Positions 6,597 through 62,949 of a stretch of 64,000 nucleotides of DNA are shown piece by piece. The position numbers were made by a program, and so were the translations under genes. How positions within the stretch are numbered: position 1 is the first letter of the stretch; each line of letters starts with the position of its first letter. The notes beneath the pieces are model-generated. The model was not told the DNA's origin. It was given only the letters and a program-made list of their open reading frames with translations, and searched no databases. Source of the DNA: Narcine bancroftii (Eukaryota); NCBI RefSeq assembly GCF_036971445.1, contig NC_091480.1, positions 62,372,001 through 62,436,000 of the forward strand. The letters run 5' to 3'.

Positions 6597-6993
6597 GTTC
6601 GGCGGCCATGGTAATGACAGTTTCTGTCGTGGCGTGATACTCGTCATCTTCAAGAGTAGACTCCTTGGCCGAGCAGTCATCTCCCTGGATGTCATAGCGA
6701 TCTAACAGTTGTTGCAGCGGGGGAGCTTTAGGCAGGAGCTGATTGACAATATCTCGACTAATGTTGGGGGCTTGCTTCAGACGCAGCTTGCTCAGGATCT
6801 GGGATTTAATGGATTCCAACCTCAGTGCTTTGCTATGCTCCCTCCATAAACAAGCGGAGCATTCTTTTCTCCCAGGTTCCGCAGGGACTGAGACGCTCTC
6901 TTCTGCCCCTAAATCCTTCTCCAAGGCTGGCTCGATGCTGCCTGTCAATCCCAGAGAGATCAGGAGGCAAAGCAAAACGTGTGGTCTGTGCAT
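6597..6993 (-). CDS. GDF11: Growth differentiation factor 11 (GDF11/myostatin subfamily), coding exon 1: signal peptide and N-terminal prodomain
   Basis: ATG at 6993 (gaccATG), hydrophobic signal peptide, then [62 protein letters not shown]...[18 protein letters not shown]. The 397-nt exon ends in phase 1 at donor GTGAGT (6596). [22 protein letters not shown] and ORMDL2/DNAJC14 linkage favour GDF11 over MSTN. Exons 2-3 were not seen in the window. Confidence 0.85.
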
Positions 6994-7001
6994 GGTCTGC
7001 T

Positions 7002-7002
7002 G

Positions 7003-7033
<31 letters not shown>

Positions 7034-7040
7034 CGTGCGC
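7002..7040. repeat. (GT)n/(GCGT)n microsatellite in the GDF11 5' UTR
   Basis: A GT dinucleotide run followed by GCGT units, ending about 9 nt upstream of the ATG on the minus strand. Confidence 0.9.
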
Positions 7041-7124
7041 GCCCTGTTGAGAATGGATCTCGGGATTTAGGAGAAGGCAGTGGGTGAGTGACACGCTGGT
7101 GTATGATAACTGATCAACTGGGTC

Positions 7125-7260
7125 GCGCCTTTTTATATTATAACTTTGGCCGAACTATTGCGTCGTAAAAATCCGGGATTGGTTGAACAGCCAAAGGGGT
7201 TTTTGGCTGTCAAGAAAAACAAGAGAGAAAAAATTTAAGACATTGCCTTCTGTCATTTCT
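7125..7260 (-). promoter_or_regulatory. GDF11 proximal promoter: TATA box, CRE-like site, CCAAT box, two Meis/TALE sites
   Basis: On the minus strand: TGACAG (7255-7250 and 7212-7207), AACCAATC (7184-7177), TTACGACGC (7168-7160) and TATAAAAA (7137-7130), ~140 nt upstream of the ATG. Confidence 0.8.
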
Positions 7261-8716
7261 CGTTATTATCAGCAGGTTCTCCCTCTCTCCCTGAAACTCT
7301 CAAGATGTCATTCGATATATTTCATCCTTTCTCCTATTTACTGGACCCAATTTGCTTTATTTTTATCGTGCAGACTCCAGACACAGGCTTGTGTTTCCAT
7401 CCACTAATTTCGTTTTAATTGACAAACTATTTTGTTTCCTGAGTTTATCGGTGTTATCACCGTCCATACCTTCGCGTTCACTTTTCATTAATTTACGTTT
7501 GGACTTTGAGTGTGTTACTGTTTTATTTTTAACCCAACCAGGATCGACGGTCAAGCCATGCGCGTCTGCGAAACTGACCTGTAATTAAGGTCATTGAGGT
7601 TTATTGTTATTTGCACCGAGCGCTCGGGACTCTCGGACGACTGTCTTCAACGCCTTCATTTACATGCTTTGGCGGCGCGTTCTTGTGAAAGAACCCATTT
7701 GGCTTTCTTTTGGTGGGATGATGGAAGGAGAGACGCTTGTGGACAAACCGAAGTTAGGGATCGTTCGCTTATTGTAATTTCGAAACCTTTTATTAAACAG
7801 TATACCACCTCCATGAATAGAAGGGCTGCGGAATGTCGGAGAAACTCAGCAGGTCAAACAGTGTCCTTCAGATTTATGGTCAGAGGACATCACATCCAAC
7901 CCTGAGTTTCCTTTTTTTTTCTTGTAGGCGAGGCAGAATTGCCACGAATTGGGAGTGCAAAAAAAAACCCTGTACTCAACGTACACGTCAACAAATAAAG
8001 AACTCAACAACTGACTGCAATTTCGAGAAAAGGACGAGTCCTTCAATGGATCCCTGATTGGGTTTGTTGTTGAGGAGTCTGATGGTGGAGGGGGAGCAGC
8101 TGTTCCTGAACCTGGTGGAGCGAGTCTTGCACCTCGACCCCTTTCCTGATGGCGGCAGCGAAAACAGAGCACCTGATGTAGCAAAGATAGAGATACATAA
8201 CCAACGTCTCCTGCTTGAGCCCTTCATCAAGTTATATCCATTAATAGATTTATCTACCCCATTAATTATAAACCAGCAAGGCAGGGTGGAGCAAATTCGC
8301 GTCAGTAACTCGATCTGGGATAAGGCGGAATCTACCGGATTATTGTAAAGCAAAACATTTGGTTCACTGACGTTCTTCAGGGAAGGGAATTTGTCCTCTT
8401 TACCCGGCCTCGACTTGTGTAACTCCAGACCAACCGATGTGCTTAACCCTTAAGCGTCTCTTCAGTTCACAACCAATAATGCTGGATTTATTAGCGAACG
8501 CTAACTAATTTATTTTGCACTCGATGCGTTTGTTTCCCCGAAACTCTTTGAACCGTTTTTTTTACGCGTCAGTTTCGTGTCTGATGAGCTGCAGGTTGTT
8601 CTCAGAGCGAACGTTGTGATGGTTTCTCAGCATCGTTTTAACGAAAAGAATCGATAGCGAGAGGCCCAAACAGTCCATAACTATAATGACATGAACTGTC
8701 AATAGTGAAACAACAG

Positions 8717-8904
8717 GAAGCCCAGCCGGAAAACGGAACCACATCTTACCTTCGACCATGGGAACCCAGAGACTCAGTTTACCCCACTGCAGGGCTCCTT
8801 TCCCGAGCGTCTGTTGCTCAAGGAGCCCTGCAATGGGGTAAACTGAGTCTCTGGGTTCTCATGCTCGAAGGTAAGATGTGGTTCCGTTTTCCGACTGGGC
8901 TTTC
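8717..8904. repeat. Long near-perfect inverted repeat (~83-bp arms, ~19-nt loop), probably a MITE
   Basis: AAGCCCAGCCGGAAAACGGAACCACATCTTACCTTCG...GGGCTCCTT is mirrored by AAGGAGCCC...CGAAGGTAAGATGTGGTTCCGTTTTCCGACTGGGCTT. Confidence 0.9.
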
Positions 8905-9411
8905 GGTGACATTCCTGTGTATAAATTAAGATGAAAAATGACCATTTCGCCCATCCAAATTCAAGGCTATTACATGTCGCAAAAGTACGGCGACAATCGG
9001 TGATCGAAAGAAATTTCTCATAACCTAGCAGAATGAGACAAGGCCAGAATGTAGACCTTTCGGTTTAATTAGACTGAGATTGACACGTACTGGCTCTCGA
9101 AATTGTCCGTTTGCATTTAACCTTAGTTGCAAATGTAACCAGAACTTAATAAACCCTCTCCGTAAATTCCACAGCAGAGAAACAGTAGGTGTTGGAACAT
9201 CTATGAGTCATACAGTACAACACATATACGCAGTCAGTCAACTGGTCTGAACTCTTTATTGAGACCGAGAAAGACTTACAGCATTCCATAAGACATAGGA
9301 GCAGAAATAGGCCATTCAGCCCATCGATTCTGTCCTGCCATTCAATCATGAGCTAAAGGTTCCATTATTGTCACATTTAGAATTCTACCGCTCCTTTGTC
9401 CAGCAGAAATG

Positions 9412-9473
9412 AGGCCCCAGCGAGGAATGAACTCATGCCCCCTGGTTTAAAAGACCAGTGCTCTAACCTCTGA
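9412..9473 (-). pseudogene. 5'-truncated tRNA-Thr(UGU)-derived pseudogene
   Basis: Minus strand TCAGAGGTTAGAGCACTGGTCTTTTAAACCAGGGGGCATGAGTTCATTCCTCGCTGGGGCCT resembles vertebrate tRNA-Thr(TGT); the 5' acceptor strand is missing and the anticodon position reads TTT. Confidence 0.75.
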
Positions 9474-9555
9474 TTCATTCTCCCACTCCACGAACCCCCG
9501 CCCCACATAACTTTCCATGCCATGGCTAATCAAGAACCTATCAATCTCCGCCTAA

Positions 9556-39358: not shown

Positions 39359-39532
39359 ATGTACGTTGGCGTCGCTCACAGTGAGGTTAATCCCAACACT
39401 CGGATAATGAACAGCCGGGGAATCTGGCTGGCCTACCTAATTTTAATTGGAATTCTCCATGTCGCCTTGCTGAGTATTCCATTCTTCAGCATTCCGTTGG
39501 TGTGGACCCTCACTCACATCATCCACAACACG
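39359..39532 (+). CDS. ORMDL2: ORM1-like protein 2, coding exon 1
   Basis: [58 protein letters not shown]; 174 nt; acceptor AAG/TAG at 39347/39350; donor GTGAGT. GIWLAY and FFSIP match ORMDL2. Confidence 0.93.
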
Positions 39533-39689
39533 GTGAGTTAAGGAGAGTGGGTAGGGTGGGACAGCGATGGTTGGGTATTTAGATGGGTGCTTTATAAGGC
39601 TGTTTGACGTCTTTAAGGACATAAGACAAAGGAGCAGAATTTGGATTTTCGGCCACACATATCTGCTTCGCCATTCAAATGGATGAAGT

Positions 39690-42460
39690 AGAACATAAGA
39701 GCACAGCACACCTTCAGCCCATGATGCTGTGCTGACCTACATCACCCTACTCAACAGACAAAATCTTCCCTCCCTCACACCCATAACCCTCTATTTTCTT
39801 GTCTGTCCAAGAAAATGTCCCTATTGCACCAGCCTCCACTACCACCCCTGGTAATGCATTCCAGCCACCCATTACCTTCTCTTTTTAAAAAAAAAACTTA
39901 TCCCTGACATCTCTCCCAAAGATCTCCTCCACTCACTTTGTATAGATGTCCTCTGGTGCTTTCTAATCTCGGAAAAAGGTGCTGGCTGCCCTACACTATG
40001 TCTCTCATAATCTTGTCATCTCTCATCCTTCTTTGCTCCAAAGAGGAAAGCCCCAGTTCTGCTAACCTTGCCTCATAAGATGCATTCTCCAATCCTGGTA
40101 AATCTCCTCTGCATCCTCTCTGAAGCTTCCACATCCTGTAATGAGGTGACCAGAACTGAACACAATATTCCAAGTATGGTCCCACCAGTTTTTATAGAGC
40201 TGCAACATTACCTCGGGGCTCTTGAGCGCAATCCCCTGACTAATGAAGGCCAGTACACCATAAGCCTTCTTAACTACCCTATCAACCTGCGGAGCAACCT
40301 TGAGGGATCTGTGGATTTGGACTCCATGGTCCCTCTGTTCTTCCACACTATTAAAAATCCTGGCATTAATCTTCCAAAATGCATCACTTCCACACTATTA
40401 AAAATCCTGGCATTAATCTTCCAAAATGCATCACTTCACACTTATCCAGATTGAACTCCATCTGCCACTTTTCTGCCCAACTCTGCCTCTGCTTCCTGAA
40501 GCCAAGCCAATCCTGAATCCACACAGCCAAGGTTCCATGGATCCCACATCTCATGACTTTCTGAACGAGTCCACCATGGGGGACCTTATCAAATGCCTTC
40601 CTAAAATCCATATGCATCACATCTACTGCCCTACCTTCCTCAATTTCTTTTGTTACTTCCTCAAAAAACTCAATTAGGCTTGCTAGGCATGTATTTCCCC
40701 TCACAAAGCCACGCTGACTATCCCTGAGAAGACTATACTTCTCTAAATGTTCATAAATCCTGTCCCTAAGAATCCTCACCTGTAGTTTGCCCAGCACTGA
40801 TGTAGAACTAGTCTATAATTCCCAGGATTCTCCCAATTACCTTTTTAAACAAGGAGACCACATTTACTATTCTCCAATCCTCCGTTACCTCCCCTGTGGC
40901 CAGGGAGGACACAAAGATCATTGCCAACACCCCAGCAATCTCTTCTCTTGCCTCCTGTAGTCACCTGGGTATATCTTGACAGGTCTCAGCGAGTTAGCAA
41001 TGCTAATGTTTTTAAGAAGATCCAGCACCCTCTTTCTTAACCTCAACGTGCTCCAGCCCACAGGCCTGTTCTATACTGACCTCACCTTCAACAAGGTTCC
41101 TCTGTCTGGTGAACACTGAAGCAAAGTATTCATTTAATACCTCCCTCCCTCCTCTGCCTCCAGGCACATGTTGCAGCCCTACCTTCACTCTTGTCATCTT
41201 TTGTTCTTCACATATTCATAGAACGGTTTAGGGTTTTCCTTAATCCTACTTGTCAAGGCCTTCTTGTGTCCCCTTCTAGCTCTCCTAAATCCTTTCTTAA
41301 GTTTCTTCCGGGCTATCATATAATTCTATGAGCCCTTCCTGTCTTTCCTAAACCTGTAAGCTTCCTTCTTTCTCTCACCTCTTTTGTCAACCAATTTCCC
41401 TTTTCCTACCATCTTTACCCTGTCTCAGTGGGACAAACCTATCCAGAAATTCAGCACAAGTGATGCCAAAATATCCTCCACATTTTTTCCTGTGCTCTTC
41501 CCTGAGAAATCTCTTCCCAATTTTCTCTCCCCAGTTCCTGCCTAATTCCATCATAATTAGCCCTTCTCCAATGAAACACCTTCTCATTTTGTCTACTATT
41601 CTTGTCAATAACTACGATAAAGGTCAGGGGAGTTGTGGTCACTTTCACTGAAATGCTTCCCACTGAGAGGTCGGTTCCCTGACCAGGTGCTCTACCCAGT
41701 ACTAAATCCTTGGACACACCTGACAAATTCTGCTCCATCTCAAGTCTCTCAAATCCGCACCAGTATCTCTGCACCATTCCAAAATCTGCCTACATATCTG
41801 CTCCTCAATGTCCCAAGAGCTATTGGGGCTGATAGACTACTTCCAATACAGTGATTGCTCCCTGCCCATTTATACCCACACTGACTCAATAGACAATTCC
41901 TCCACTATGTCCTCCCTTTCTGGACCTGTGATACTATCCCTGATTAGTAATGCTACTTCACACACCCCCCCCCCCCTTTTACTTTTTATCCTATTCCTTT
42001 TAAAACATCTAAACCTTAATACCTGCATCAGCCAAGTCTCTGTAATGGCCACAACATTGTAATTTCACCTACTGACCCTTGCTCTAATTCATCTCTATTC
42101 CTAATAATCCTTGCATTGATATAGACATATTTTAATTCCTCCAACTGACTACATTTACGCTCCCACCACTGCCCGTCCTTCCTGACAAACTCACATGTTG
42201 CATCCAGCTTTCCACCATCTGTTGTGTTCTATGCCTTCACATTTTGGTTCCCACCCCCCTGCCAAACTAGTTTAAACTCTCCTCAAATGTTCTAGCAAAC
42301 CTGCCTTCCAGGATATTGGTGGCCTCCATCCTGTTTAGGTGCAACCTGTCTTTTTTGTACAGGTCATACTTTCCCCAAAGATCCTAATGATCCATGAACT
42401 TCAGCCATGCATTCATCTGCCATAACTTCCTATTCCTGCCCTCACTGGTACATGGCATAG
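39690..42460 (-). mobile_element. Long degenerate CR1 LINE in an ORMDL2 intron
   Basis: AITETWL (EN), DFRKAFDKVPH (RT) and PYLEYCVQFWSPHYR; 47-bp local duplication at ~40341-40437. Confidence 0.88.
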
Positions 42461-44360
42461 GCTTCAGGACCTCCTCAGTTTTCCTATCTCTTTCAACCCC
42501 TTTCTCCTCCCCATAACCTTTGTCACCCTTACTACTTAAGAATCTATCAAACCAATGATGTGGCCTCCACAGTCATCTGTGGCAACAAATTCCACAGATT
42601 CACCCCCCCCCCCCCCCCCCCCCCGGCTGAAGTCACCTCTCCTCATCACCAACCCCCATGGAGCACCATTAGTTACTGGCAGCCAGCCAGAAAAGACAGC
42701 CTTATTTCTACTCTTTGCCTTCTGCCATTCAGCCAATCTTCTATTCACCATAGTATGTTTCCTGGTAATACTGTGAACTCCTTTCTTGTTTAGAATTCTT
42801 GTGTGCGGCACTTTGTCAAAGGCCTTCTGAAAATCCAAATAAATAACATCCACTGACACCTCTTTGATCTTAAAACAAACCTGCAGTATACAAGTTGCAA
42901 TACACAGGATTCAGTCTCTTGAGCTTGAGGGTACTGTTGCCATGGTTAATCTTCGGCATTCTTTCCTACCCTCATATTATCAAAGGACAACCAGCCAGGC
43001 CTCCCTTCCTGATCACTTTCTTGGGAATCTGTGTGTGTGCGCAAGCTCCCCTGTGATTTACACCACCCCACTCCAATCCCCCACTATAACCTACACTTAT
43101 TCATCAGAGATGGTGATGGTCTCCTAGCAAATCTCCATTGCTTGGGCACTGAGACCTACTCTCCCACTGTGCATTGACTGCCAAATACTGTGAAAGTTGT
43201 GTACCAGAAGAACATCTTTGAATGATTAATTTGGTCACTTAATTGGTTACTGTATATTGCCCCTGCTGTAGGTAGATGGTAGAATTGGGGTGAGCTGATA
43301 GATATGTGGGAGAATATTTGAGAAATGAGGTTAGATGCTGGAACCTGGAGCAAACTGCTGGAGGGACTCAGCAGTTGAGCAGCATCTGTGGAGGCAGAGG
43401 GATGTAGTAGGGTTGCTCTATGAGTTGGCATAGCTTGAATGATCTCTTTCCATGCTGTAAGGAAATTGTGCTCACACTGGAAAGGTTGGATTCTGATTTT
43501 ACTGTCAAGATGCATTGCGATTTGCCCTGTAATACAGTGTTCCTTAATAACTTGAAGTTTCCACAGGTATTCCCCATGCAAGGGTCTGTGGCCTATTTGG
43601 CAGCAGAACCTAGGCAGGTCCCTTTCTCATCCAATCAGATTCTGGGAGTTTCAGGTCTGTAATGATTGAGCATATTGCTTGATGCATTTGCCCAGTGACT
43701 TTTAAACTGGAGCTATTTTTTTCCAATTGTATCCCTGAGCTTTGCAGAAAGCTCTGTGCAACCAAGTTTCTGTTCACTTGATCTGGGTTACACATTAACA
43801 CACTGGCCCAGTACACTTATCCAAAATATACCAAGAATAAATGTGGCTTTGATGGAGATACAATCATCACTTATGACTGATAAATGTTAATGATCAAGGC
43901 AAAGAGGGATCTGGAATTGATGGAGGCAAGTATTAGTATTAATACTAAGTATTAGTGTAGATGGTTGGCATTTATTCAGTGTGCCAAAGGGCCCATTTAT
44001 ACGCTGTATAGCTCTGTCTCTATAAGCTCAGCAGTTAAATGAAAATCTAAAATTTAATTGATAAGCTGTTTTAAACTGGTTAAATTATTTTCTACAAAGT
44101 GGAAGAGTGTCACTACATATTTCACAGGACTTTTAAGCCTAAAACCAAGGCTTTTAAATATGGAGGTCTTTGTATGGGAGAGGCTGGGTGTTTAAATGTT
44201 GTATCAAGAGCAACATCAAAATAAGGTAGAAATGATCCAGCCTTTTACGATCTCCATAAGTATCCACCAAGGTTGTTTAAAGATGAGCCTTCCACTCACA
44301 ACAAAAAATGGTGAGGGCTTCAAGTCAACACCAGGTGTGGTAATGAGTCTCTGTTTATAG

Positions 44361-44512
44361 GCTATGTATTGGTTTCTGCACACGGTTAAAGGAACACCCT
44401 TTGAGACTCCAGACCAAGGCAAGGCACGGTTACTGACCCACTGGGAGCAAATGGATTATGGGATCCAGTTCACATCATCACGCAAATTTCTCACCATTGC
44501 ACCAATAATTCT
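44361..44512 (+). CDS. ORMDL2: ORMDL2 coding exon 2
   Basis: Acceptor tttatag; [50 protein letters not shown](L); donor gtaagt; 152 nt. Confidence 0.95.
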
Positions 44513-45924
44513 GTAAGTCCCAGTTTTACTTTTTGGTAACTGCTTTAATTGTCAGAACTAGGGGGAAACCTGGAGCATTGTCGTGAGAGGGAAACAGAAA
44601 CTAGCCAGTGAAATCCCCAATATTTACAAGTTTTAATCAGGGTTCAAAACTCCTCTCTTGACACTTGAATGTGTTTTTTTTAGATACTAGACTTTGTTTG
44701 CTGTGACATAAAAGATTCTCAGCACCATTGGAAGGACAAGGGCATTCCCAATGTGCTGGGCAATGTTTATCCCTCAAATCAGCATTTCTTGAAACAGATC
44801 ATTAATTCCTTGACAAATAAATTTGAAATTGGCTGCAAGGTTATTCTACTGTGCTACAATGCCTATATGTCAAACAGCCTTGACTATACAGTACTTTTTT
44901 TAAGAGTACTTGTGTGAAAATATCTAGAAATGCAGGTCTACCTTTTTTTTGGATATCACTTCAAGATCTGACAGGCGATGATCCCAGGATAGCTGATATG
45001 GTACGAATCAGTCTGTCAATTTCACAGTTGAATACCCTTTCAATACACACCTTAAGTGTTTTAACTTTTTAAAGTTATTTTATCCGGGGTGGGGGGGGGG
45101 GGGTGCGGGTGGCGGGTGGAAGTTGTCACTGGCAAGACTAGTGTTTAATGTCGTGAGAAGGTGATTATGAACCACTGCCAATAGGTGCCATCTTTGTGAG
45201 AAGGGTTTGGACCCAGTGATAATGAAGGGGCAGCAATGCATTTGTAAAGCAATGTGATTTGGAGAGGAATCTGCAGTCAGCAGTGTTCCCATGTGCCTGC
45301 TACCTTGAACTGCTTGGAGAGGAAAGTCACATGGTTAGTCAAACTAGCCAAGGTGACTTGCAGCAATACATTCTGTGCAGTAATGATGCACATTGCAGCC
45401 ACTGTTGTCCAGTCGAGGGGAGAGTGAATGTCTAGAAGTGGTTTAGGTGTCAATTAACTGAGTTGCTTTACCCTGGGTGGTAACCCTCAGCTTCTTGAGA
45501 GGTGTTGGAAGTTGCACTTCGTCCAGGCAAGTGGAGAGCATGTTTTGGTTATGGTGGATAGGCTTTTGGGGAGTAGGGAGAGCTCAAGCCCAAGTTGCTT
45601 GGGCTCATGGAAAGACCCATGGAAACAAACTTTAAACAGGTTAATTATTGAAAAGTAATCCAAGGTTGCAAAGCAGATTTTGTGGAGAAACTGGGATTGT
45701 TCTTTGTAGAGCAGGATAAGGGAAAGGAAAATTTAATTGTAACATTCGAAACCATAAATGTATTTTGATGGAGAAGTATTCAAGGTGGATTAGGGGTTTG
45801 AGGACTATGGGAAACTGGCACAGAAGAATTGAGGTTAGCATCCTCCTCCTGCTCTTGTGTGGAGGCAGAGGAACTTTCCTGTGGCTGGAAGGTCAACAAA
45901 CAAGGACAAGGATTTAAGATAATT

Positions 45925-46690
45925 TATAATAATAACAATATGTTTATTGTCATATACATTGTATAATGTACATATGCACCAAAATTGTTGCTGCAGCTGA
46001 ACAGGTACTTCATGAAAAAACAAGAGTACACATTAAATTAAAAATGGAAAATAAGTACAAATACAGGTAGTTAATATATTCACAGTTTTCAAAGTGCAAT
46101 AGTGCAGACAGTCCTTTTGTGCTGTGGGAGCATTCGATGGTCAATGTAACAAGGGGAGGTTCAAGAGTCTGATCACTGTTGGAAAGAAAGTGTTCTTGAA
46201 CCGAGAGGAGCTGGTCTTCACGCTTCTGTACCTTCTGCTCGAAGGGAGCAGTGAGGAGGTGGTGACCAGGGTGACGTTGGCTGCCCTCTTAAGGCAGCAC
46301 CTCACAGAGATTTGGTAGAGAGTCCAATAACATGCCAATTCTCGTCAGACTTCTCAGAAGGTAGGTGTTGCTGTGCCTTCTTCATGGTTGCCTTGATGTG
46401 CTGGCTTCAGGAGAGTTTTTCTGAGATATGGACTCCCAGGAACTTGAAGGTACTTCCTCTCCCCATCTCTGTCCCATGGGTGTGGACAGGTACATGGTCC
46501 CTCAACCTCTCCTTCCTAAAGTCAACAATAGCTCCTTGGTTCTTGGTGATGTTGAGAGCAAGATTGTTGTTCTGGCACTACCCAACTTGGTTCTCCATCT
46601 CCATCCTGTATTCCAACTCCTCATTTCCAGTTATTCATCAGTGAATTTGTAGATTGAATTGGAGCTGAACTTGGCTAAAGCAGTTGTGTC
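45925..46690 (-). mobile_element. Rex1/Babar-type LINE 3' fragment
   Basis: LLPSSRRYRSVKTSSSRFKNTFFPTVIRLLN. Confidence 0.75.
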
Positions 46691-46860
46691 ATTGGCAAAA
46701 GAATCAGCAACAAAGGATTTACAGGTTTATAGGGAATGAGCAGGGGGAGAGTTTAACTCCAAAACACAAATCATGGGCTAAATTGTAGTCTTAAACAGTA
46801 TGTAATTTGCTGAGTAAAGGATTGCTTGTCATTTAATAAATGGTTTCATTTTCTTTCCAG

Positions 46861-46996
46861 GTATATGCTAGCAAGTTTCTACACAAAATATAATGTTGTT
46901 CATTTCCTGGTGAACACAACATCTTTGCTCACTGCCCTCATTCCCAAACTCCCTCAGCTACATGGGGTCCGCCTTTTTGGCATCAACAAGTATTGA
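46861..46996 (+). CDS. ORMDL2: ORMDL2 terminal coding exon
   Basis: Acceptor ttctttccag; [44 protein letters not shown] then TGA. Exons of 174+152+136 nt total 462 nt (153 aa). AATAAA at 47088. Confidence 0.95.
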
Positions 46997-60642: not shown

Positions 60643-62062
60643 CTAAAAAGAAGAAAAAGAAGTTATTCAAGTTGTAACTTGATACCTTGATGAAGGGCTC
60701 AAACTCAAAACATTGATGTATTTTTACCTTTGCAAGATAAAAAACACTATTTGACCTGCCGAGTTTCCCCAGCATTGTGTTTACTTTAACCATGGGGTTT
60801 ACAGATTTTCATGTTTTACTTGTGACTGTGTGTGACTTGAGTTCACCAAATTCTCTTCCAAAAGATCAGAGAAAAATATGAAGGCAATGTCACAATGGTT
60901 GAGGTAATGAAAGAAATCCAGGTACTTTGTATCATTCTATATCCCAGCCAAGGAGGTGTGGGTGTCCCAACCCCACCTGTTACCCACTTGCTTCCTAACC
61001 ACCCATTTGAAAGTGAATTACAAAATGGAAATTGATTGATGTTCAGGCATTAAGAAAGTAGAATCAAATCTGGTAAACATGGCTCACTTAATTCTATGTT
61101 GGGAACAAGTTCAAGGAACTGGATGATCTTTTCCTGGTCCTATGAACCATTCTGAGTTTCCTTCACACTATTGCCAAGCCACCACTTTGTATCTAATGGC
61201 TTGATCCATAAATCCATCCAAATGTCTTTAGAATGTCAAAATTGTGTCCCCTTCTGCAGGAGAAACACGCCCCCCCCCCACCACTCAAAATTAAAGTTGT
61301 CCCTCAGGTCCCTCTTGAATCTTTCTCCACTCACCTTAAACCCACGTCCTTTAATTAAAAAATCAGCTACCCTTTAGTTCAAAAATCAGCTACCCTTATC
61401 CACACCCCTTGTGAATTTATAAACCTTTATAAGGTCACCCCTCAGCCTCCTATGCTGTCGGTATAACCTGTATAAAAAAAGAGGTGAGGCAGAAGCTAGG
61501 AAGTGAAAGGCAGATCCAATTCAGGGGTTAATGGACAGACGGAGTCAGATGGGGGAAGATAATGACAGAGCTGGGAGGTGAGATGCTCTAGAATACAATT
61601 TTAGCTAGATTCTCCAGAACCACTTTCAGAAACACTCAAGAGTTTGCTGTCATGGAAGAGCTGTAATTTCCATCAACATTTCTTCTCATTCAGCAGAAAA
61701 CAAGTGCTCTAGCCTGTTCAGAGAAATGACATCATTTCAGTTTCAACCAACAGCAGGTCATTTTGTATGTTTTAGTGTTGACTTTCGTTTCACAAAAACA
61801 GAGGAAGCACCTGTTGACAATCATAGGCCTAAGATATTTATGTCGAGTTAAATGGAATATAGAGCACAGACAGAAATCAGGAGCCAGTGATCTACACTGG
61901 TGTCTATGCTCCACAAAAACACTGCTGGAGTAACCAGGCAGCTAGCTTTATGCAACACATTATTTCCAAATTGGCAATGCACACAAAGGTCGAAAGATAC
62001 CATTTTTTTTTCTTAATCCAACATGCTGGAACTATATCAAGACAGCTTTAAATTTTTAATAC

Positions 62063-62223
62063 CTGTGATATCATAGACTTTGCCATCCATCATCGCAAAG
62101 TAAGTGATTTTCAATCCCAGCATTTTTGATTCTGCCCAAAAGTCTCCATCCTCGACAGCATGTCTCTTGTTACACTTAGCACAATATCGAGCTGCCCGAG
62201 GGTCTCGATCCATTTCAAATCTC
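62063..62223 (-). CDS. DNAJC14: DNAJC14 internal exon (Jiv90 zinc-binding region)
   Basis: Acceptor tttgcag; [53 protein letters not shown]; donor gtatt; 161 nt. Upstream exons lie beyond the window. Confidence 0.95.
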
Positions 62224-62949
62224 CTGCAAATAACATTTGAACTTAATTGCGACACACAGGTAGATAAGGAAATGAAGTTCCAGAAAAGACTTGACATAGG
62301 ATGTCACAGGGGCCCTGTGGTTAGTAAGGGATTACTTAAGGTGGCATGTGTGGAAAAAAAGGTTGAGAGCCACTGCCCTAAACCTATCCTATCCATGGAT
62401 CTGTCCACATGCTTTTTTTTGAACGTAAACACTGCGATAGTACCTGCCTCAACCACCTCCTCTAGCAGCTTGTTTCATACACCCATCACTCTCTGTGTTT
62501 TAAAAAAAAGTGTCCTCTTAAATCTCTCGCTCCACCCAAAATCCAAGTCTTCTGAACATAGATTACAGCCCACGATGTTGTATATACCTACCAAATAAAA
62601 ACTAAACACGCCCTATCTCATAACCCTCTATTTTTCTTGCATTTATGTGCTTGTCTAAGAGTCTCCTAAATGCTCTACCAGCCTCCATCACCACCCCTGG
62701 CAATGCATTCCAGGCATCCACAACTGCACGTTAAAACAAAACTTACCCCTGATGTCTCCCGAAAACTTTCCCCCCCTCACTTTGTACAGATGCCCTCTAG
62801 TGTTTGCTACTCCCACCCTGGGGAAAAGGTGCTGGCTGTCCACCCTATTTATGCCTCTCAGAATCTTGTAGACCTCCATTAAGTCACCTCAGATTCACCT
62901 ACTCTGGACAAAGGACTCTCTGCATGCACCCAATCTATTCCTGTCATGA

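Follow-up and report, generated by a model that had tools for sequence, protein, structure and literature searches.

The CCAAT and TATA boxes of the Mstn promoter are conserved from fish to mammals, and sites for CREB, NF-Y, and MEIS1 are described as needed for basal Mstn control, with muscle activity carried by E-boxes (PMC6477727). For the paralog GDF11, the first-pass annotation of the present locus had cited a GC-rich promoter in mammals; the human promoter is indeed 77% GC, yet a review (PMC8109099) reports that trichostatin A activates it only through an intact CCAAT box at -66. PMC8080601 places the duplication that produced the two genes at the origin of vertebrates and describes the ancestral gene as broadly expressed, like GDF11. 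MSTN and GDF11 encode almost the same ligand and do different jobs, largely through the site of their expression. Conserved non-coding elements kept between vertebrate ohnologs are a known kind of element, and the known cases are mostly distal enhancers of transcription-factor genes. Here we describe an 84-nt block, alignable with the MSTN core promoter, that lies upstream of GDF11 in a ray. The DNA analysed, termed the window, was a stretch of 64,000 nt (G000:C24:62372001-62436000), and its features are collected in Table 1.

Table 1. Features of the ray GDF11 locus and its surroundings; positions are those of the window unless a contig is named.
Feature	Position	Strand	Basis
Core promoter block, 84 nt, MSTN-homologous	7129..7212	-	63/84 ungapped against G000:C9:249946172-249946255; shuffle and real-sequence controls
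TGACAG, candidate MEIS-type site	7207..7212	-	offset 0 in both ray paralogs; also in teleost gdf11
CCAAT box, putative NF-Y type (CCAATC)	7177..7182	-	CCAAT invariant in 4/4 aligned promoters
TTTTACGAC at the MSTN 'CRE-like' position, HoxA9/AbdB-type match	7162..7170	-	full 9-mer in both ray genes
AAGTT element upstream of TATA	7142..7146	-	ray GDF11, ray MSTN, and teleost mstn; not teleost gdf11
TATA box TATAAAAAG	7129..7137	-	9/9 bases same as ray MSTN
66-nt stretch with upstream TGACAG (7255-7250)	7235..7300	-	85% identical copy at 6191-6126, intron 1
5' leader with CA repeat (about 6995-7047)	6994..7088	-	one X8 contig, 7088-6597, ending at splice donor
CpG-retaining region over promoter	7000..9500	.	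CpG obs/exp 0.57-1.01 per 500 nt against 0.29 for whole window; GC 0.42-0.46
GDF11 exon 1, coding part, 397 nt	6597..6993	-	matches protein record P0128
GDF11 exon 2, 374 nt	G000:C24:62356202-62355829	-	outside window; normal splice sites
GDF11 exon 3, 381 nt	G000:C24:62352998-62352618	-	outside window; normal splice sites
ORMDL gene, three coding exons	39359..46972	+	PF04061; ORMDL2 by elimination
Open frame with DNAJC14 exon	62040..62303	-	Pfam Jiv90, E 8e-20

Gene identity and genomic setting

The ray gene has three exons and is intact; its product carries the Pfam domains TGFb_propeptide and TGF_beta, and a furin site, KRIRR, precedes the mature domain, which is encoded in exon 3 (G000:C24:62352618-62352944). 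All three exons match P0128, which is labelled GDF11-like at source. Its cluster has 22 members; the 15 that were listed come from sharks and rays, and most of them bear the same source label. Genome searches with exons 1 and 3 returned one other close locus, on contig C9, which matches P0018, labelled GDF8; no third MSTN/GDF11 paralog was found in these searches, whose counts are lower bounds. Trees were built from 54 rows and from chosen subsets of 26 and 19, rooted on cyclostomes with no invertebrate outgroup. The clade of the ray gene joined bony-vertebrate GDF11 in each of them (89/75, 91/89, and 94/94, the last under a mixture model; none starred), and MSTN, the C9 gene included, formed a single clade (99-100/96-97) outside which the window gene fell. 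The AU test, applied to 26 rows, rejected an MSTN duplicate confined to chondrichthyans (p = 0.0008) as well as a branch lying outside GDF11 plus MSTN (p = 0.018), but it did not reject a sister relationship of the ray GDF11 clade to all MSTNs (p = 0.123). The mature residues D89, Q91, M52, and G100 are GDF11 states, whereas position 62 has H and not the Q of GDF11; the best non-elasmobranch matches are all GDF11. Judged by these sequence comparisons, GDF11 appears to be the best name for the gene, as the first-pass annotation had proposed from protein motifs and from linkage to ORMDL2 and DNAJC14.

That linkage was recovered within the window, where an ORMDL gene (PF04061) is followed by a frame with a Jiv90 domain, which we take to mark DNAJC14. 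Also on C24, BLOC1S1 lies 6.3 Mb and a fourth Hox9 paralog, HoxC9 by elimination, 2.1 Mb from ray GDF11; the human GDF11 neighbourhood comprises ORMDL2, DNAJC14, BLOC1S1, and HoxC. Since a second ORMDL at C24:72.67 Mb, near HoxB-like genes, resembles human ORMDL3, and the ORMDL of C9 lies beside MSTN, the ORMDL of the window is ORMDL2 by elimination. The order on C9 is HIBCH, MSTN, ORMDL, and the same contig carries a HoxD-like cluster. The separate MSTN that had been expected near HIBCH and ORMDL1 is therefore in place, so that a relocated MSTN was rejected as the identity of the window gene, and the AU result for a chondrichthyan-only duplicate likewise removed an MSTN duplicated in this lineage. 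Ray GDF11 (6993) and ORMDL (39359) stand head to head, which differs from the human order, and a local inversion is likely. A search for SARNP, run without a working control, gave no match.

Several observations concern the wider chromosomes. PMC12318234 places Gdf11 on the X of five elasmobranchs, an X that also carries the Hox C cluster. In the ray, C24 unites a GDF11/HoxC-type segment with an ORMDL3/HoxB-type segment. Its HoxB13-like and HoxB9-like genes each have a diverged second copy on C26 (L042, 8.06 Mb, and L050, 7.85 Mb), the HoxB13-like copy (L042) being frameshifted in exon 1. Fusion of an X to an autosome, together with a neo-Y in decay, would be compatible with this pattern. Beside MSTN, an ORMDL occurs twice (C9:250.19 Mb and 250.34 Mb, 154 kb apart, identical scores), which could reflect a tandem duplication of recent date or an error of the assembly.

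GDF11 orthologs in related species give spliced transcripts. Contigs of eight runs were aligned to the window (13 runs were listed, none recorded as RNA and with tissues not given), and since 7/8 runs differ from the window by about 1.5-8%, they come from relatives. In four of the eight (X2, X3, X7, and X9) a contig passes from the exon 1 donor into the start of exon 2, as matched by eye. One X11 contig joins exon 1 (donor 6597) straight to exon 3; without the 374-nt exon 2 the reading frame is shifted and ends at a stop after 155 residues. For X10, the letters beyond the exon 1 donor found no place in L003, L004, L005, or the window; the X11 and X10 junctions are single contigs with a depth of 6-9. 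The X1 contig covers 6744-6983 only, and the X8 contig stops at the donor. Counted from the first T of the TATA box, the furthest 5' contig end, 7088 (X8), lies 49 nt downstream, and none of the eight runs covers 7104 and above, so the contigs are uninformative on the start of transcription.

The promoter block in ray, teleost, and human genes

The motif string that the first-pass annotation quoted from the minus strand was found letter for letter. Its reading of that string as the MSTN order stood for TGACAG, CCAAT, AAGTT, and TATA and failed at the middle, where the 'CRE-like' TGACG is absent and the site is TTTTACGAC (7170-7162), with ACGAC (7166-7162) inside it. The ray GDF11 promoter has a GC content of 43% and a clear TATA box. 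Transcription usually starts 25-30 nt below a TATA box, and from this spacing a start near 7105-7112 is predicted; no ATG was found in the leader between 7112 and 6994, and the start codon lies at 6993. A further TGACAG at 7255 was rejected as part of the shared module, both because its distance from the second site is 43 nt as compared with 22 nt in ray MSTN, and because it falls within a local duplication of 66 nt; this TGACAG does not align with MSTN. The genome search gave 2 matches for the 66-nt stretch, and both copies (7300-7235 above the promoter and 6191-6126 in intron 1) retain TGATAA and TGACAG. In ray MSTN (L002:1139-1166) and teleost mstn (L044:476-504), two MEIS-like hexamers stand 22-23 nt apart above CCAAT, the lower one reversed in the teleost.

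The ray GDF11 and ray MSTN blocks align without a gap, with 21 base differences over the 84 nt and 46/54 identities from CCAAT through TATA. All five motifs stand at offsets 0/30/46/66/75 in both genes, with 45 nt from CCAAT to TATA, and identity falls sharply at the flanks (17/30 before CCAAT, 16/41 after TATA). Between the 1300-nt upstream regions of the two genes, taken from the same genome, the local alignment score was 70, as compared with 23.6 +/- 2.2 (maximum 34) for 500 dinucleotide shuffles, none of which attained 70, and with at most 36 for 293 real 1300-nt control pieces; the comparison of promoter alignment with chance that had been called for thus came out clearly in favour of the alignment. 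By contrast with the block, fourfold-degenerate sites of the two genes agree at 13/35 positions in exon 2 and 11/45 in exon 3 (24/80 in total), which is near random. Since neutral similarity between the paralogs has been lost, the block must have been either under selection or converted.

A pattern was also drawn from the two MSTN promoters alone (CCAAT n11 ACGAC, then TATAWA within 35 nt), the gdf11 promoters having already been seen by then; an earlier version of the module pattern had been drawn with all four promoters known. The MSTN-derived pattern occurs at ray GDF11, 0/20000 shuffles contain it, and on the two strands of 909,782 ray bases the GDF11 and MSTN promoters are its sole occurrences. 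Taken by themselves, the 14 fixed bases CCAATC n3 GAT n4 ACGAC are no genomic rarity (3 matches; reversed control 8); the third CCAAT-ACGAC match, on C23, has neither AAGTT nor TATA behind it and was taken as chance. A genome DNA search with 7125-7330 did not recover the C9 MSTN promoter, which is a limit of the search seeds.

To widen the comparison, metagenome contigs were scanned by exon 1 alignment, blind to the promoter, and 66 candidate stretches yielded three loci; for further vertebrate loci, genome_contigs gave 1 weak bacterial match of 62 and viral_contigs 0/7. L044 (86% to P0108) proved to be a teleost mstn and L043 (96% to P0010) a teleost gdf11; the remaining locus, L045, lies on a contig without upstream DNA. 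The promoters compared were therefore four in number (ray GDF11, ray MSTN, one teleost gdf11, and one teleost mstn), without DNA of a holocephalan, gar, coelacanth, tetrapod, cyclostome, or amphioxus. The teleost mstn block shares 44/54 bases with ray MSTN and 41/54 with ray GDF11. About 420-490 nt above the ATG of teleost gdf11 we found TGACAG, with CCAAT at +34, ACGAC at +50, and TATA at +70; AAGTT is lost, and CCAAT-to-TATA measures 36 nt as opposed to 45. The order TGACAG-CCAAT-ACGAC-TATA is present in both teleost genes, and the distance from the start of CCAAT to ACGAC is 16 nt in 4/4 promoters. Plain alignment of teleost gdf11 is weak: identity with the ray GDF11 block is 28/54, and shuffles attained the score in 2/500 cases against ray GDF11, 57/500 against ray MSTN, and 105/500 against teleost mstn. 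The case for its homology therefore rests on motif order and spacing. In the teleost gdf11 upstream DNA, CCAAT n11 ACGAC arose in 8/20000 shuffles, and in 0/20000 with TATA behind it. Adding about 30 nt to the start, the 36 nt of teleost gdf11 would put its CCAAT in the same place as the human -66 box, and a shared core would be a likely origin for the CCAAT that the GC-rich human GDF11 promoter requires.

Origin of the block and consequences for expression

The 84-nt block is probably the basal promoter that the single GDF8/11 gene had before it was duplicated, maintained by purifying selection in both daughters and least changed in cartilaginous fishes. An origin before the duplication had been proposed in the first-pass annotation, and the ungapped alignment, the base-exact spacing, and the same order in teleost gdf11 make it the most likely one. 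What did not survive is the further view that the promoter was retained at GDF11 in this lineage in particular: it was retained in the ray, but since teleost gdf11 carries the same order, retention is not special to the ray lineage. In such a promoter, NF-Y on CCAAT and TBP on TATA would set the start near 7105-7112, while factors at TGACAG (MEIS-type) and at ACGAC would tune the level of expression. Tissue specificity would then come from gene-specific enhancers, directing MSTN to muscle and GDF11 to the tail bud, nervous system, and other organs.

Compatible with an ancestral promoter is the idea that the shared core causes ray GDF11 to be expressed like myostatin, mainly in muscle, making it a second myostatin. 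We regard this as doubtful, though conceivable. The core is near-identical to that of ray MSTN, a MEF2-like 10-mer that may be a chance match lies about 1.1 kb upstream in both ray genes, and H62, found in 9/9 listed elasmobranch GDF11s, is the lower-potency GDF8 residue in PMC5336696. However, the core is described as basal, with muscle activity residing in E-boxes further upstream (PMC6477727), and teleost gdf11 carries the module too. Moreover, when 40 kb of the GDF11 locus was compared with 20 kb of the MSTN locus by blastn, the 17 hits comprised three exons, the promoter, one LINE, and 12 that were repeat-like (so called as a group, by recurrence); no further non-coding block common to the two loci looked unique. 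A shared promoter is therefore not a sufficient ground for myostatin-like expression of ray GDF11, which does not follow from it, and by itself it likely does not make the gene muscle-specific.

The ligands differ as well. The listed elasmobranch GDF11s share H62, H63, N95, and Q97 in their mature domains (9/9), and position 66 is A in 8/9 (A/V66 overall); chondrichthyan MSTN has Q62 and A100 in 3/3 listed. Since Q62 and G100 both add potency to the ligand (PMC5336696), each chondrichthyan paralog, GDF11 with H62/G100 and MSTN with Q62/A100, carries one of the two potency residues.

Selection on an inherited element has to be weighed against an old ectopic gene conversion, in which the MSTN core promoter was copied onto chondrichthyan GDF11 and refreshed a homologous element. 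Ray GDF11 is nearer to ray MSTN (46/54) and to teleost mstn (41/54) than to teleost gdf11 (28/54), and several bases common to both ray blocks are lacking in teleost mstn, as conversion would predict. Faster change in teleost gdf11 would also explain the 28/54, however, and the ray paralogs (46/54) are about as similar as the ray and teleost MSTN orthologs (44/54). Identity also drops at once on either side (17/30 and 16/41), synonymous sites are saturated, the genes lie on different contigs, and the T before ACGAC, which teleost gdf11 shares with the two ray genes, can be ancestral. Taken together, we consider conversion improbable. A 1377-nt block, 98% identical at both loci, was rejected as a conversion tract, being a young high-copy LINE with 672 candidates. 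This LINE is 5'-truncated (L004:5531-6906, in GDF11 intron 1, and G000:C9:249938125-249939501), and its 98-100% identity to many copies points to a recently active family.

The promoter could also be of MSTN type because the gene itself is an old MSTN-side paralog at the GDF11 address. The AU test leaves the grouping with all MSTNs standing (p = 0.123), the source labels are mostly 'GDF11-like', mature H62 is as in human GDF8, and the head-to-head arrangement with ORMDL is unlike the human order. Yet 3/3 trees, the residues D89, Q91, M52, and G100, and the best non-elasmobranch matches favour GDF11, the genome searches found no third locus, the module is present in teleost gdf11 regardless, and PMC12318234 puts Gdf11 itself on the X with Hox C in five elasmobranchs; we therefore hold this reading to be very unlikely. 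Lastly, separate origins by chance or convergence, for which it might be said that CCAAT and TATA are common, that the motifs are short, and that the 14-base core is not genome-rare, are extremely unlikely and for the ray pair refuted, since the spacers match too, no gap occurs over 84 nt in the same place before exon 1, and 0/500 shuffles and 0/293 real controls come near.

If, as the ancestral reading has it, a single core promoter passed to both genes, then what is studied and also edited as the 'myostatin promoter' of livestock and fish would be an old basal module from which muscle specificity does not arise, and enhancers must account for the difference between MSTN and GDF11.

The middle site and comparison with known systems

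A preprint (bioRxiv 10.64898/2026.10.09.757953) names TGACAG as the MEIS motif, and TGACAG followed by TTTTACGAC is its cooperative Meis1/HoxA9 binding probe. While TTTTACGAC is present in both ray genes, teleost gdf11 has TTACGAC, and TGACG is found only in teleost mstn; the other three promoters thus have TTACG and not the TGACG half-CRE. It is possible, though we think it unlikely, that the ancestral GDF8/11 core promoter bore a posterior-Hox (AbdB-type) site together with MEIS, and that a base change in bony-vertebrate MSTN made of it a CRE half-site; the Hox-type match is perfect in both ray genes and may be partly kept in teleost gdf11. Both half sites of the probe occur letter for letter in both ray promoters, but in the ray they are 36 nt apart with CCAAT between them, whereas those of the probe are adjacent. 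Because of this distance, and because the TTTTACGAC 9-mer occurs three times in the 909,782 ray bases fetched, two of these being the promoters described here, we treat the link to Hox and MEIS as a lead only. Were it true, the axis-patterning gene GDF11 would receive direct Hox/MEIS feedback at its own promoter, and the cAMP/IGF responsiveness of myostatin would be a later rewiring of the middle site. The ray pair amounts to a natural 84-base swap experiment and points to the TTACG versus TGACG site, at which the factor may have changed.

The block appears to be the known MSTN element, found here on the paralog GDF11. For the sharing itself we found no report in the open-licence literature, with subscription papers on fish and amphioxus GDF11 outside that scope; the accessible part of PMC13097845 holds nothing on a shared MSTN/GDF11 promoter, and in the available text of the PMC6477727 review 'GDF11' and 'shark' each have 0 occurrences. 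The ray GDF11 block has the motif order of the ray MSTN and teleost mstn promoters at near-identical spacing, but it sits on the GDF11 paralog, and the CREB position of the MSTN proximal promoter is occupied by TTTTACGAC in both ray genes. The human GDF11 promoter, as summarised in PMC8109099, resembles the ray one in CpG retention and in how far its CCAAT box stands from the start, which in the ray is a predicted one; the ray promoter differs in its GC content of 43% and its clear TATA box. Finally, like the non-coding elements kept between ohnologs, the ray blocks remain alignable though the synonymous sites of the paralogs are saturated; unlike most of those elements, the ray block is the TATA core promoter of a secreted ligand.
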